DNA of 64,000 nt, taken from the sequence record NC_070984.1; one strand, 5' to 3'. A program made the position numbers and the translations under genes. This DNA is from Escherichia phage ES17. The notes below the pieces were generated by a model. That model made no database searches. It saw only the letters and a program-made list of their open reading frames with translations, and was not told the origin of the DNA. Below, in pieces: positions 2,610 through 46,473 of this stretch. Within the stretch, counting starts at the first letter, position 1, and every line of letters starts with the position of its first letter.

Positions 2610-3101
2610 ATGGATAACGCCGCATTGCCACCTGTACAATTAAACTTAAGCCCAGCTGGAATGGAATTCATTATGAAGCATGAAGGTATGAGAACCAAGG
2701 CTTATAAAGATTCCGCAGGCATCTGGACGATATGTGTAGGGGCTACGCGCGATATGAATGGTTATCCGGTTAGACAAGGATTAACGTATTCTATAGAGGA
2801 TTGTCTAGCTCTGCTAGATAGAGACACACAAGACTCTGTTCGTGCTACTCAGAAGAACATAAAAGTTCCTTTACTAGTTCATGAGTTTGATGCACTCACT
2901 TCTTTCAATTTTAATGTTGGAAGTGGTGCTTTGAGCACATCTAAGTTAAGGAAGGTTATCAATGGAGATGTTAAAGGGGATATTTATTCCGAATTTCTTC
3001 GTTGGGATAAGATAACGGTCAAGGGAGTGAAGCAGAGAAGTCAGGGTCTTCATAACAGAAGGGTTGCAGAAGCTGATCTTTATACCGAAGGTAAATATTA
3101 A
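2610..3101 (+). CDS. Endolysin, GH24 (T4/lambda-type) lysozyme
   Basis: HEGMRTKAYKDSAGIWTICVGAT matches GH24 catalytic Glu / Asp / Thr region; RBS AAAGGAGG. Confidence 0.85.
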   Translation: MDNAALPPVQLNLSPAGMEFIMKHEGMRTKAYKDSAGIWTICVGATRDMNGYPVRQGLTYSIEDCLALLDRDTQDSVRATQKNIKVPLLVHEFDALTSFNFNVGSGALSTSKLRKVINGDVKGDIYSEFLRWDKITVKGVKQRSQGLHNRRVAEADLYTEGKY

Positions 3102-43259: not shown

Positions 43260-45290
43260 TTAACCTCTATTCAATGAACATTTAGGAGAATTACAATAAA
43301 CTTGATTCATAGAACCAAGCGTACAACTTTCAGCATCGCGCCACGGAATCTGCTTAAAACACTCTGAGCAGTATCCGAGGGTTGACCACATTGCTTTGGT
43401 GAAGTCAGTGCTTCGGTTTCCGTCGAAGCTGACGACAGTTTTGCGGAGAGCTGTTCGTGATTCAGGAAACACACCTGCTTTCTCAGCAGGTTCCTCCTTT
43501 TTTGGCTTAGTTGAGATTGCAAAAATACTGTTGCTACGTTTCTCAACATAAGCATCAACAACATCCTCCAGAGTGATGCCTGTCTGTTTCGCTGAGGAAG
43601 GTAATACAGTCATACGACCGATCATATCTTCAGTTACACGTAAAGCGAATTCAGGACGACGGGCGTTTGTTGTATCTGTTGCTTTAATCCAGACATAACC
43701 ATCTTTGATCGTAGCATTAGACACTTTCTTCTTTACTTCTACAGCGCAGACTTTACAGATATCTTCACCACGAAGACGACTAAGTTCATCATCGAACTCA
43801 TTCTCTGTTTTAACTTCACCGCAGATTTCACAAACACCAATAGGAGTTTCCTCCTCTTCTTCCTCTTTAGGTTTAGTCAAACCTTCCAGACATTCAGGAT
43901 GCCAATAGCACTGATATGCGAAGACTGCTTTAGGTGCATCCTTCCAATCAATGTGCTTATCACAACCACCACAATCACCATGAGAGTGCGCTTCCCAGAA
44001 TTTACGAGTGATAGTAACACCATTCTTGTTGACGAAACTATCATTCATATCAAAAGGGATATCATCATCGAAGTCAGCAGTAGTTGACTCAGGCTCCTTT
44101 TTCTCCAGAGATGGGTCAACAAAACGACCTGCTGTGATCACTAAACGGACCATAGCATTGACTTCGGAGATGCAGGATACTGTCCCACGGTAAACAATTT
44201 TAGGGTCTTTCAGGGCATCCTGATAAGCCTTAATGTCTACGTTATGAACATCACCTTCGATATACTCTTGAGATTTCTCATCGTAGATATAACCAATCAT
44301 CTTACCACGAGAAGGAACAGCACCGGCAGTTGCATAAGGAACAAACTCATGCGGAGTGATTTCCACAGTCATATCGCGGCGAATATCAATGTTTCGATCG
44401 CTTGCGATTTTGTTTTGACTTACCACTGCGTTTCTTCGACGAACGTCTGCCGCTGTCACACCCGGCTTCGTGTCGTAAGGATTGCTTGTACTGCTTTTTG
44501 AGGAACTTTGATAGTTGCTTTGGCTGTAATTGTTCGAGTAGTAATTGCCCCAACGATTGACTACCGTAAAAACCGGAAGCTCGTGGGCGACCTCTTCAAC
44601 CAGTGTCATGCTGTTATTAGACATGTCAAAGATATACTCTGTACCAACTTTACACTCAAAATGCTCATCAATACGGTTCTTGTGAGACTTCGAACGCTTC
44701 AGAATCCACATCAGCATATCTTCTTCAGAAGCGCCAAACCAATCTCTGTTACAACGTGCGAGATGGAAAGGACGCTCTTCGTTACGAATGATATGAAGGC
44801 GGTTATCAGAAGCATCATGCCAGATTAAGGTGAAAGCACCATCCAGCTTTTGAATAGTCTCTGCTGCACCAATAGTGTTAATAGAGTGGCAGATGTTCTC
44901 ACTATCTACCTCGAAGTTTTTACTGTCAGGTAACAGGTCTTGGTCCATCAAGGTTCCATTATGAACCAGAGTGATGTTACCATGTTGGAAAGGATGGGCG
45001 TTCTTGGCGTTAACTGCACCTTTCGTTGCATGACGGCTGTGACCAACAATCCATGAAGGTGCTACAGTGTAAGCTGTTTCACCAGTGGTGTGCTTCTTGT
45101 ACTCATCTTGTAGGATGAATGCGAAAGAAGGAAGAGCTTCTTTATAAGTGAAGACTTCCTTAGTACTTTTACGCTGACCAAAGATACCGGAGGAATGTTG
45201 TCCTCGGAATACTCCAGCATAAAAGAGTTGGTTAAATACGTCTAAATCAGTGCTTGACAGATTACCGCCAGCTAATACGATGCCACAAAT
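43260..45290 (-). CDS. Class-II (Ntn) glutamine amidotransferase domain fused to Cys-rich C-terminal region; apparent ATT initiation
   Basis: Frame open 113 codons upstream of track start; begins ATT-TGT: (I)CGIVLAGG, VFRGQHSSGIFG, VGHSRHATKG..NAHPF, LVHNGTL are GAT-II hallmarks; C-terminus has 4 CxxC pairs. Confidence 0.75.
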   Translation of the reverse strand: MCGIVLAGGNLSSTDLDVFNQLFYAGVFRGQHSSGIFGQRKSTKEVFTYKEALPSFAFILQDEYKKHTTGETAYTVAPSWIVGHSRHATKGAVNAKNAHPFQHGNITLVHNGTLMDQDLLPDSKNFEVDSENICHSINTIGAAETIQKLDGAFTLIWHDASDNRLHIIRNEERPFHLARCNRDWFGASEEDMLMWILKRSKSHKNRIDEHFECKVGTEYIFDMSNNSMTLVEEVAHELPVFTVVNRWGNYYSNNYSQSNYQSSSKSSTSNPYDTKPGVTAADVRRRNAVVSQNKIASDRNIDIRRDMTVEITPHEFVPYATAGAVPSRGKMIGYIYDEKSQEYIEGDVHNVDIKAYQDALKDPKIVYRGTVSCISEVNAMVRLVITAGRFVDPSLEKKEPESTTADFDDDIPFDMNDSFVNKNGVTITRKFWEAHSHGDCGGCDKHIDWKDAPKAVFAYQCYWHPECLEGLTKPKEEEEEETPIGVCEICGEVKTENEFDDELSRLRGEDICKVCAVEVKKKVSNATIKDGYVWIKATDTTNARRPEFALRVTEDMIGRMTVLPSSAKQTGITLEDVVDAYVEKRSNSIFAISTKPKKEEPAEKAGVFPESRTALRKTVVSFDGNRSTDFTKAMWSTLGYCSECFKQIPWRDAESCTLGSMNQVYCNSPKCSLNRG

Positions 45291-45293
45291 TTT

Positions 45294-45323
45294 CTAATCC
45301 ACCTGAAGGGTAAACCCTTTCAT
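45294..45323 (-). other. 9-codon upstream mini-ORF (MKGFTLQVD) ending 3 nt before GAT-II ATT codon
   Basis: ATG 45323 with AAAGG RBS; in-frame TAG at 45294-45296, then AAA, then ATT-TGT. Confidence 0.35.
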
Positions 45324-45369
45324 CTAATTAACCTTTAAATTGTGCCCCTTTATCAGAGGCACCCATTGA

Positions 45370-46473
45370 TTACAGCGCTTGCTCTAACTGATTTTCCAGA
45401 TGGTCTGGAATGTACCCTGTGATATTGCTATCACTGTGACCTGACTCACGTAGTAAGTCAAAAATAGCACGGATACGCTGTTCTGGAGCGTGTCTTACTT
45501 GAGATAGGTCTGCTGTACGAAGCATAACCAAAATCTCTTGGTACAAGTTGTTAGCGTTCCCTCGGACATACCCAAGGAAGCCATAGAAGTCTGACATAAG
45601 ACGTAAGTCAACAAGAGCCTCTCCGTTGGAGTTGGTTCGACGTAAACGAATACGACCAGACTGTTCTACTTCATGAGAACGGCAATACAAAACATCACGG
45701 GCCATACAATATCCTGAATGCAAATCAGATTCATCCAGATTGTAATCCAGAGGAAGGTAAGGAAGCATTGGGGCAAATCGTACAGTATTTAAGTGCTCAA
45801 TAAACTGATCATTGCTCATATCTGCGTTATCTAAAGCCAGCTTCTTCAACATCAAGAAGCGGTTAACCAGATTGAGAAGTTGACCACGTTTCCACTTAGG
45901 CTCACTGATACGGAACTCAATTGAACCGTATTGGGCAAGTGGCAGAAGGTTCAGAGATGTATATTTATCCCATGAACGAACCAGACGGTTGAAGAATTCT
46001 TCACCATCGTAGTTAAATGCGTCAGAGGCATTCATTACCTGTGCTTGTACCACTGCAAACGCAGGGCAGAAATTGCTACGGTAACGATGGTAGCCTGAAC
46101 ACTTGAACAGCATCTTTTCATAGAAGGTCCAAGCAAGGATGGTCTTCTTGAGGATATTACTATCAGCATCCCTCATATCCATATGAACGTGAGTAGAGCA
46201 ACGCCAAGTCCCCTCGGCGTGCGATTCAGCTACTGCTTCACTCAGGTTGTTGATAGCGTCTAACAACTCCTGTCCGTTGTAAGGTCGTGAACATACCATT
46301 TCACAACCGTTACGCAGGGAACCATCCTCTGTGCAATCCCACATATCTGCTTCGATATGTTCAGAACCTTCGAGTTCAAGTTCAATACCGACACCGCACT
46401 GAAGTGCAATTGAACTATGCGCCTCAGTTAAACGACCTTCTCGATATCCAAAAGTTTGCGCTACAGTTGTCAT
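45370..46473 (-). CDS. Glutamine-synthetase/GCS2-like amidoligase (carboxylate-amine ligase)
   Basis: GIELELEG, EDGSLRNGCE, THVHMD, GSIEFR motif series. Confidence 0.5.
   Translation of the reverse strand: MTTVAQTFGYREGRLTEAHSSIALQCGVGIELELEGSEHIEADMWDCTEDGSLRNGCEMVCSRPYNGQELLDAINNLSEAVAESHAEGTWRCSTHVHMDMRDADSNILKKTILAWTFYEKMLFKCSGYHRYRSNFCPAFAVVQAQVMNASDAFNYDGEEFFNRLVRSWDKYTSLNLLPLAQYGSIEFRISEPKWKRGQLLNLVNRFLMLKKLALDNADMSNDQFIEHLNTVRFAPMLPYLPLDYNLDESDLHSGYCMARDVLYCRSHEVEQSGRIRLRRTNSNGEALVDLRLMSDFYGFLGYVRGNANNLYQEILVMLRTADLSQVRHAPEQRIRAIFDLLRESGHSDSNITGYIPDHLENQLEQAL

Follow-up and report, generated by a model that had tools for sequence, protein, structure and literature searches.

Predicted AUU initiation of a phage glutamine amidotransferase gene and a possible origin of its leader in homing-endonuclease cassettes

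How does a phage translate an enzyme that needs its catalytic cysteine at the N-terminus when no canonical start codon precedes that cysteine? The question is raised by a gene for a class-II, or N-terminal nucleophile (Ntn), glutamine amidotransferase (GAT) on the minus strand of Escherichia phage ES17 (NC_070984.1), a phiEco32-like podophage (Kuravirus, Gordonclarkvirinae); the 64,000-nucleotide (nt) stretch that we analyzed is called the window below. Bacteria and phages use AUU starts extremely rarely, and the textbook explanation of such starts is regulation linked to IF3. Comparative sequence data strongly support ATT at 45290-45288 as the functional start of this gene and as the sole route to a catalytic N-terminal cysteine. 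In the phage GAT-II family, no fewer than 10 scattered lineages have an ATT start. We consider it probable that the GAT is translated from AUU by means of a dedicated initiation module related to the 3' end of a mobile HNH endonuclease cassette, the endonuclease itself having been lost. We propose more tentatively, as something that may or may not hold, that a family of HNH endonucleases homes into the GAT initiation codon, takes over the ribosome-binding site and ATG, and carries a surrogate module that destroys the homing site, the phiEco32-type leader being a relic of this process. The coding sequence and its candidate starts are placed as follows.

43260-45290, minus strand: coding sequence of the class-II (Ntn) GAT, 676 codons from ATT, delimited by translation, Pfam, the boundaries of phi32_83, and selection on its codons
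45288-45290, minus strand: ATT, the putative AUU initiation codon, in the two-codon gap after a TAG; invariant in 98 records and taken as the start by the phiEco32 and SU10 annotations
45285-45287, minus strand: TGT, the catalytic N-terminal nucleophile Cys1 by profile alignment, invariant in the family alignment
44949-44951, minus strand: TTG, the first canonical in-frame start, which would give 563 amino acids and which we reject as the real start

Read directly from the coordinates, the GAT frame is open for 113 codons upstream of the TTG at 44951, as an earlier note on this DNA had reported. Only two sense codons, AAA and ATT, separate an in-frame TAG from the cysteine codon; after ATT TGT, the frame continues as GGC ATC GTA and stays open to its stop at 43260. 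The same note had argued that initiation at ATT would give the N-terminal cysteine that class-II enzymes need, and the family profile agrees: it places this cysteine on residue 1/2, the Cys1, of E. coli GlmS (1xff), PurF (1ecb), and human GFAT1 (6r4h), although a PDB search with the single GAT sequence found no match. R28, G29, N110, G111, and D128 are likewise invariant in the family alignment, and Pfam recognizes GATase_6 (55 bits, cut-off 27) and GATase_7 (27.4 bits, cut-off 25). The protein thus has a cysteine first after the initiator methionine, the domain signature, and the R-G, H-N-G, and D residues of a class-II GAT, and its gene has no canonical start between the TAG and this essential N-terminus and an AUU that is conserved in orthologues.

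Could translation begin at TTG 44951 instead, the 113 upstream codons being a decaying remnant or the ATT a base-call error? Many pipelines annotate the TTG start, and the proteomics table for phage SU10 lists a GAT of 63.8 kDa, which corresponds to the 563-residue model (63.83 kDa), whereas 676 residues would give 76.1 kDa. We find this account hardly credible, and purifying selection, the catalytic residues, and the conservation of ATT together refute it. The ratio of nonsynonymous to synonymous substitution (dN/dS) is 0.07 across the 113 upstream codons (0.065-0.077, at a saturated proportion of synonymous differences, pS, of ~0.7) when the window phage is compared with SU7, ECBP2, KBNP1711, and EP335 from two other genera. 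In an alignment of 13 sequences, substitutions fall at third positions of the cysteine frame, beginning at TGT itself. This purifying selection and third-position pattern argue that the first 113 codons are translated and selected. A TTG start would drop Cys1, R28-G29, and N110-G111, and no Shine-Dalgarno (SD) sequence stands ahead of it. Moreover, ATT is identical in 98 independent phage records and several metagenome assemblies. It is not a product of chance or sequencing error because the 63-nt leader as a whole is near-identical across such sources, at ≥99% identity in 89 of the 98 phage records and also in independent metagenome assemblies. We infer from these patterns that AUU is used in vivo.

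The bare fact of the ATT start is already on record since the type phage is annotated in this way: the phiEco32 GenBank record (since 2008), its RefSeq copy, and SU10 all begin the GAT coding sequence at ATT. Among the 128 coding sequences of phiEco32, 112 start with ATG, 13 with GTG, 2 with TTG, and 1, the GAT gene, with ATT. Other deposited annotations are shorter. Those of KBNP1711, EP335, BUCT695, PQ867847 (by 3 amino acids), VPp1 (by 68), and 275E43-1 (by 10) truncate the protein and lose the catalytic cysteine. As a practical point, many deposited genomes cut 3 to 113 codons off the GAT gene and so remove the catalytic cysteine. The earlier note mentioned neither the existing annotation nor two features treated below, a hairpin abutting the SD and a link to homing-endonuclease cassettes.

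What could make such a weak codon usable? The leader directly upstream contains the following elements.

45298-45304, minus strand: SD sequence AGGTGGA (SD2), predicted to serve the AUU; its duplex with the 3' end of 16S rRNA has -5.9 kcal/mol and its spacing is 7
45291-45297, minus strand: A-rich 7-nt spacer TTAGAAA, which holds the in-frame TAG (45296-45294)
45306-45319, minus strand: hairpin AAGGG-TTTA-CCCTT (-4.6 to -6.1 kcal/mol), within the upstream open reading frame and ending 1 nt before SD2
45294-45323, minus strand: nine-codon upstream open reading frame (uORF), MKGFTLQVD and a stop, in frame with the GAT gene, spanning the hairpin and SD2 and ending 3 nt before ATT

Both the SD 7 nt before ATT and the in-frame TAG that closes a nine-codon uORF 3 nt upstream had been noticed earlier, and both are present at these positions. 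The uORF runs from ATG (45323-45321) through AAA GGG TTT ACC CTT CAG GTG GAT to the TAG and is invariant in the Gordonclarkvirinae. An identical GGATTAGAAAATTTGTGG is found in the Aeromonas phage BUCT695, in the Melvirus phage PQ867847, and at locus L128 (L numbers denote homologous loci in our collection); the latter two have no uORF ATG.

The uORF shares the reading frame of the GAT gene, and Ntn amidotransferases can process their own propeptides, as Bacillus subtilis PurF does. Translation could therefore be imagined to start at the uORF ATG and read through the UAG, giving a 12-residue propeptide, MKGFTLQVDxKI, that is removed autocatalytically. We regard this as very improbable because the only tRNA in the window is tRNA-Arg(TCT), so that there is no suppressor tRNA, and because TAG is an ordinary stop that ends 14 of the 128 phiEco32 genes; stop-codon recoding and suppressor readthrough were rejected on these grounds. 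In addition, relatives that share TAG-AAA-ATT lack an upstream ATG, and the uORF at locus L084 is in a different frame.

Is the ATT peculiar to phiEco32-type phages? To find out, homologous loci were gathered from IMG/VR, metagenomes, GenBank phages, and genomes, and the codon preceding Cys1 was noted. GenBank has 313 phage records with this GAT. A search with a 7-sequence alignment yielded 25 metagenome or genome loci, and scans for the SD-spacer-ATT pattern, whose matches were mostly due to chance, contributed L128 and L170 as the only new lineages. Most loci have ATG-TGY at this position. ATT-TGY is found in the phiEco32 group and in L055, L058, L059, L084, L128, L170, PQ867847, BUCT695, and the Vibrio phages VPp1 and 275E43-1. 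The ATT-type proteins share 30-44% identity with one another and are scattered among ATG-type relatives in a neighbor-joining tree. Within the GAT family, ATT is commoner than GTG and TTG together, whereas across the phiEco32 genome GTG and TTG outnumber ATT by 15 to 1.

The ATT leaders also share an architecture. The aligned distance from SD to start is 7 in 10 of 10 non-redundant ATT leaders and in 13 of 54 ATG leaders (p ~3e-6), and the median SD energy is -9.75 kcal/mol in the ATT class against -6.5 kcal/mol in the ATG class (p = 0.03). A uniform algorithm placed a hairpin against the SD in 10 of 16 non-ATG leaders and 4 of 54 ATG leaders (Fisher p = 1.4e-5); the hairpins of VPp1 and WD615 are additional to these and were seen by eye. 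Hairpin energy differs between the start classes as well (Mann-Whitney p = 4e-4). These abutting hairpins have 4-7 bp, end 0-2 nt from the SD, and are unrelated in sequence between lineages; that of PQ867847, at the matching position, is AGGGGT-TGTG-ACCCCT. At L170, positions 540-620 read AGGAGGA ttataaa ATT TGT on a 4.2-kb contig that is binned as 'Bacteroidia MAG' and is probably a phage fragment. At L089 (~1170-1215), an out-of-frame relic, ATG TGT GGT ATT GG, lies 26 nt upstream of the functional GAT start TTG TGC GGA ATT and resembles another scar of a start-region duplication with a non-ATG functional copy.

Where might this module come from? Directly upstream of the leader in L084 and PQ867847 lies the HNH endonuclease motif CxWxG..DGYP ... 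HxCDNxxCINPxHL, and upstream of the BUCT695 leader lies a decayed HNH endonuclease whose remnant matches the N-terminal 30 residues of the endonuclease family. The motif is thus found upstream of 3 of 8 ATT loci and 0 of 53 ATG loci (p = 0.0016). When GenBank phages were searched with the L084 and PQ867847 endonucleases, the five closest homologues were those of UFV-P2, VPp1, T2S1, WD615, and 275E43-1, and every one of them sits directly upstream of a GAT gene. The endonuclease is gp47 in VPp1, gp16 in WD615, P0056 in 275E43-1, and the ORF12 product in PQ867847. The seven endonucleases form one family with 33-67% identity. GAT genes with the endonuclease start with ATT (5), TTG (2), or ATG (1), and those without it with ATG (53), ATT (5), TTG (3), or GTG (1) (p = 7e-5); the same test confined to the five loci found through the endonuclease gives p = 0.004.

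Two natural experiments locate the insertion site between ATG and TGT. Loci L084 and L082 have flanks that are 95% identical on both sides. L084 retains ...AAAGGTTAATCAA ATG TGT, followed by TGA, and then carries a cassette of ~0.5 kb that consists of the HNH ORF, a hairpin (GTCGG-TTAT-CCGAC), GGAGGA, TTATAAA, and ATT, after which TGT GGC ATC resumes. The second case comprises the Vibrio phages IME234, which has no endonuclease, VPp1 (ATT), and WD615 (TTG), with flanks 95-99% identical. IME234 reads ...AAAAGGTATTAAATT ATG TGT GGA, its allele at the start being ATG/TGTGGAAT. In VPp1, homology to IME234 on the left stops exactly at ATG and resumes on the right at TT ATT TGT. In WD615, it already stops ~38 nt upstream of ATG, since here the cassette came with an SD and ATG of its own that took the place of the original ones; homology on the right resumes at the new start, TTG TGT. 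We conclude that the cassette inserts between ATG and TGT and supplies a replacement initiation region whose start is usually not ATG. An 'ATG TGT G' relic also precedes the endonuclease ORF in PQ867847, and in several cassettes the endonuclease ORF starts at what appears to be the original SD and ATG of the GAT gene. The presence/absence polymorphism at one precise site in near-identical genomes was found in relatives only. Nine nt past the junction, the endonuclease-bearing VPp1 and WD615 have GGA ATC GTA and IME234 has GGA ATT GTA, a synonymous change that could mark the homing site or a co-conversion tract.

Why would the replacement start avoid ATG? The only universally conserved sequence at the insertion position is ATG/TGTGG. 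An ATG at the right junction would be predicted to rebuild this homing site, and ATT or TTG would break it while leaving the protein intact. An alternative is that AUU is kept for its own regulatory value, either through infC-like, IF3-sensitive control or through low output of a potentially toxic glutaminase, and that it arose convergently, the endonuclease link being secondary. A strong SD with a weak codon is the expected look of IF3-sensitive control, and the excess of ATT over GTG and TTG in the family, five ATT lineages without an endonuclease, and the long retention of ATT by Gordonclarkvirinae without any endonuclease all speak for this explanation. In the near-identical genome pairs, however, the switch from ATG to ATT or TTG coincides exactly with cassette insertion, and in two cassettes ATT is replaced by TTG, which IF3 does not strongly discriminate against. 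The window and BUCT695, moreover, have a leader in common that conflicts with the protein phylogeny, and this speaks for transfer and not for convergence. Regulatory value as the primary reason for AUU therefore seems doubtful to us.

Does the leader in the window descend from such a cassette? It matches that of the endonuclease-bearing PQ867847 at 79% over 55 nt, exactly at the GAT start of the latter, and the match takes in the shared GGATTAGAAAATTTGTGG and the hairpin with compensating differences. With the BUCT695 leader, it shares 91% identity. The GAT proteins of the window and BUCT695, by contrast, share only 52% identity, and both have nearer relatives of the ATG type (65-68% for the window and 60% for BUCT695). 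This disagreement between leader and protein phylogenies suggests lateral transfer of the leader, as would be predicted from co-conversion in homing, a mechanism reviewed in PMC2988022. The phiEco32-type leader would then be an endonuclease-free, domesticated descendant of the cassette.

Several observations weigh against this origin or against parts of the module. A tblastn search of the window with the 7 family members gave no endonuclease match with E < 0.6, and the Gordonclarkvirinae records have no endonuclease at the GAT start: all 67 full-length matches are colinear without an insertion. With no endonuclease at the site, the window is at most a relic and not a cassette member, and its cassette ancestry is deduced from module similarity over a short segment of 55-80 nt together with the incongruence described above. 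UFV-P2 has the endonuclease yet keeps ATG, and five ATT lineages have no endonuclease trace. A motif in BUCT695 between the endonuclease remnant and the hairpin, CTTTAAATGTAA, also occurs in endonuclease-free relatives of the ATG type, which complicates a simple cassette boundary. L170 has no abutting hairpin, and the folding z-scores of the leader as a whole are not significant. SU10 proteomics was searched with the truncated 563-residue GAT model. Finally, the invariance of a full 52-nt block in the leader, described below, is only partly explained by SD, hairpin, and start codon.

The BUCT695 motif CTTTAAATGTAA contains AATGTA, the -10 consensus of the phiEco32 gp36 sigma factor (PMC12276001). 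At the place that corresponds to 45326-45340, BUCT695 (its positions 3001-3015) and the ATG-type leaders L033, L029, and L034 have TTTAAATGTAA with AATGTA, where TTTAAAGGTTAA (AAGGTT) stands in the window. A promoter active at TTTAAATGTAA in these relatives would place the hairpin at the 5' end of the mRNA.

How do ribosomes reach the AUU? Farther upstream, the region between the amidoligase gene and the uORF holds further elements, some of which overlap those given above.

45286-45337, minus strand: 52-nt block with no variable column in 13 distinct sequences from Kuravirus, Suseptimavirus, and Nieuwekanaalvirus
45332-45336, minus strand: AAAGG (SD1), which resembles an SD and precedes the uORF ATG by 8 nt
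45320-45331, minus strand: TTAATTAGATGA, with TAA, TAG, and TGA in all three frames, overlapping the uORF ATG and within the invariant block
45328-45366, minus strand: 12-codon mini-ORF ('ORF-a'), MGASDKGAQFKG and a stop, in 12 of 13 sequences
45342-45362, minus strand: predicted strong stem-loop GTGCCTCT-GATAA-AGGGGCAC, directly past the amidoligase stop, terminator-like with no T-run
45370-46473, minus strand: amidoligase (Amidoligase_2), the phi32_84 homologue, upstream of the GAT gene

One possibility is obligatory termination-reinitiation, in which free 30S subunits cannot use the AUU and only ribosomes that have translated the uORF, perhaps after arriving through ORF-a from the amidoligase gene, restart there. 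The uORF stop lies 3 nt from the AUU, the stops in three frames overlap the uORF ATG, and the uORF region is invariant. SD1 is identical to part of a GAT initiation region that functions elsewhere: in the ATG-type homologue L082, the GAT gene itself starts from AAAGGTTAAT-nnn-ATG (AAAGGTTAATCAAATG/TGT). ORF-a, which begins 3 nt past the amidoligase stop, covers the whole of the strong hairpin, and leaves 4 nt between its end and the uORF ATG, chains the uORF to that stop in 12 of 13 sequences, and its frame stays open in these despite indels across three genera. Similar arrangements occur at L084, where a comparable nine-codon uORF ends 1 nt before ATT, and at L058, where the upstream gene stops 4 nt before ATT. 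We nevertheless rate this explanation as unlikely. PQ867847, L128, L059, VPp1, and 275E43-1 have the same SD, spacer, and ATT but no uORF ATG, and the TAG within TTAGAAA is conserved in such uORF-less relatives, hence not kept for uORF termination. The strong, perfectly spaced SD favors direct recruitment of 30S subunits, and the ORF-a ATG is lost (ACG) in the metagenome locus L103.

The uORF thus has its own SD and AUG and a stop near the restart codon, but it is not kept wherever the same restart codon is used; it is present in the phiEco32 group and BUCT695, with L084 as the similar case. The earlier note had left termination-reinitiation and direct AUU initiation both plausible. That choice is still a fair one for the window, but reinitiation as a general requirement for AUU use does not stand, since ATT-start relatives exist that have no comparable uORF. 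The uORF probably relays ribosomes to the AUU alongside direct 30S binding. A three-step relay through ORF-a is possible but not essential, as ORF-a is lost in one sequence (L103), and its role as an essential first step was downgraded for this reason. ORF-a may serve as the first step of a relay, or it may be what is left of an endonuclease ORF. The uORF ATG, for its part, could be the ancestral GAT start, which its surroundings resemble in L082, or a mutated ancestral SD, as in the alignment with L033, or a by-product. The element TTAATTAGATGA resembles an all-frame terminator followed by a restart.

Selection on this leader is severe. Both flanks of the 52-nt block vary freely in the same 13 sequences, and the chance of zero changes in 52 nt is ~1e-8 even at pS = 0.3. 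The invariant stretch includes the spacer from SD1 to the uORF ATG. There is no synonymous variation in the uORF, whose sole variant, MKGLTLQAD in BUCT695, differs by two non-synonymous changes, of which one falls in the hairpin loop and the other in the SD; the constraint is therefore on nucleotides and not on the uORF peptide. Neither leader nor hairpin is repeated elsewhere in the window, so the leader is not a repeated promoter or operator, and it is not host-derived since a BLAST search of 5,426 E. coli genomes gave no match. An Rfam scan of the region reached at best 14-17 bits against gathering scores of 44-70, and a search of IMG/VR for an ATG revertant of the phiEco32-type leader found none. 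When short pieces of the window and PQ867847 are folded, a long-range UUAAUU/GAUUAG stem encloses the hairpin, but a 121-nt fold lacks it; its z-scores are weak, and we give it no weight.

The preferred reading, AUU translation through a module of cassette origin, can be laid out as a mechanism. Initiation at the AUU (45290-45288) would give fMet-Cys, and deformylase and Met-aminopeptidase would then expose Cys1. The weak codon would be served by a module made up of a 5-bp hairpin abutting the SD, an A-rich spacer of exactly 7 nt, and the AUU. By homology or analogy, this module would correspond to the 3' end of the mobile HNH homing-endonuclease cassettes. Such cassettes would enter between the ATG and TGT of a GAT gene, often seize the original ribosome site and ATG, and supply ATT or TTG in return; because ATG at the junction would presumably rebuild ATG/TGTGG, immunity of the homing site may be the reason for ATT. 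In phiEco32-type phages, the endonuclease ORF would have been lost and the module retained under very strong selection, with a leftover ATG and its own weak SD opening the nine-codon uORF through hairpin and SD to a stop 3 nt before the AUU.

Ribosomes could then follow either of two routes. On the direct route, a 30S subunit would be recruited by the SD, which is strong and has optimal spacing, and would start at AUU with fMet-tRNA. Since the GAT gene sits in a long early transcript, ribosomes can also enter through the uORF AUG; on this relay route, they would open the hairpin on their way, reach the UAG with SD2 directly behind them, terminate there, and begin again at the AUU 3 nt on. The role of the hairpin and the contribution of the uORF are read from sequence and should be taken as suggestions. 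The hairpin may present the SD or stack on the SD-anti-SD helix and so prolong 30S residence, it may insulate the SD, or it may act as a 5' stabilizer after cleavage of upstream RNA.

The gene has surroundings of the phiEco32 type. An 801-nt query around the ATT start matches phages EK5, FS2B, and EcM-vB1 at 100% identity and phiEco32 at 97.5%, and the GAT gene is the homologue of phi32_83 ('glutamine amidotransferase'), with the same boundaries as phi32_83 in EU330206. Its neighborhood is a predicted peptide/metabolite-ligase cluster of a COOH-NH2 ligase, the amidoligase, the GAT, two small ORFs, and an enzyme of the ATP-grasp type. The GAT gene lies within a long early transcript and belongs to the early class (PMC4281155). 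The SU10 supplements contain no peptide-level data and list no promoter or terminator between CDS86 and CDS85, and our scan for sigma-70 promoters and terminators found none on the GAT strand. On the plus strand, a sigma-70-like TTGACA-16-TACGAT at 45254-45281 would give rise to an antisense RNA that begins near the ATT; the coding sequence in which it lies is not conserved in other genera.

The stem-loop at 45342-45362, which the earlier note had also pointed out, is real and stable, at -14.2 kcal/mol and z = -5.07 against shuffled sequences. Its stem is kept through compensatory changes in SU7, KBNP1711, and metagenome sequences, with the loops GATAA, GACAA, GGTAA, GAAA, and TATAC across genera. 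In the protein, the GAT domain takes up the first ~235 amino acids and is followed by a Cys-rich C-terminal extension, ~440 amino acids of which gave no Pfam match. This C-terminal part (43260-44580, minus strand) has three zinc-ribbon-like CxxC...CxxC pairs and an acidic linker, EEEEEE.

What would such an origin mean? A start codon that stands before an essential N-terminus is among the few positions that can be changed without altering the protein, and it is for this reason a site where an endonuclease and its target gene can settle their conflict. If this is true, non-canonical starts gain a testable origin, and the rare AUU starts of phages could be footprints of immunity to mobile elements rather than of translational regulation. 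The hairpin, SD, and 7 nt would be a compact natural module that renders AUU usable, and the cassettes would add a new case to the mobile elements known to hijack the initiation signals of a gene. The polyphyletic recurrence of ATT in the GAT family, the fixed hairpin-SD-7-nt module, and the association with a homing endonuclease that targets a start codon appear to be new: we found no prior account of them in the literature, where we also found no biochemical study of a phage GAT.

How does the locus compare with known systems? E. coli infC, which encodes IF3, and pcnB have AUU initiation codons. As in these genes, the GAT AUU is conserved among orthologues, has an SD upstream, and would be expected to have its output limited by start-codon discrimination. 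Unlike theirs, it stands directly before an obligatory Cys1, is polyphyletic within one phage family, and is tied to a mobile element. Termination-reinitiation coupling is exemplified by the lysis gene of RNA phages and by junctions in the trp operon, where, as here, the upstream ORF ends a few nt from the restart codon and contains the SD; the upstream ORF of the window differs in having only nine codons and in that several relatives with the same AUU module lack it. With GlmS, PurF, AsnB, and GFAT, the phage protein shares the Met-Cys N-terminus, the Cys1 nucleophile, and the R-G, H-N-G, and D motifs, and the profile aligns from residue 1. It is set apart from them by being phage-specific, by its Cys-rich extension, by its place in a cluster with amidoligase, COOH-NH2 ligase, and ATP-grasp genes, and by its non-AUG start.

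The cassettes themselves have parallels in mobE, a free-standing HNH endonuclease gene that splits nrdA into 'genes-in-pieces' in Aeromonas phage Aeh1, and in the seg and mob genes of T4 (PMC2988022). In all of these, a free-standing endonuclease gene is associated with a conserved phage metabolic gene that stays functional, with presence/absence polymorphism, co-conversion of the flanks, and RNA hairpins by ribosome-binding sites. The GAT cassettes differ from mobE in that insertion is at the initiation codon, so that the 'N-terminal fragment' is Met(-Cys) only and a surrogate ATT or TTG initiation region is needed; in the window, only the surrogate initiation region would survive. The closest likeness to the hairpin is the stable one at seg43(25) of Aeromonas phage 25, which directly precedes the ribosome-binding site without sequestering it and whose function is stated to be undetermined (PMC2988022). 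In both cases, the base of the hairpin abuts the ribosome-binding site without occluding it, in a homing-endonuclease context. There, however, the hairpin precedes the ribosome-binding site of the endonuclease itself, whereas here it precedes that of the invaded gene and correlates with a start codon other than ATG.

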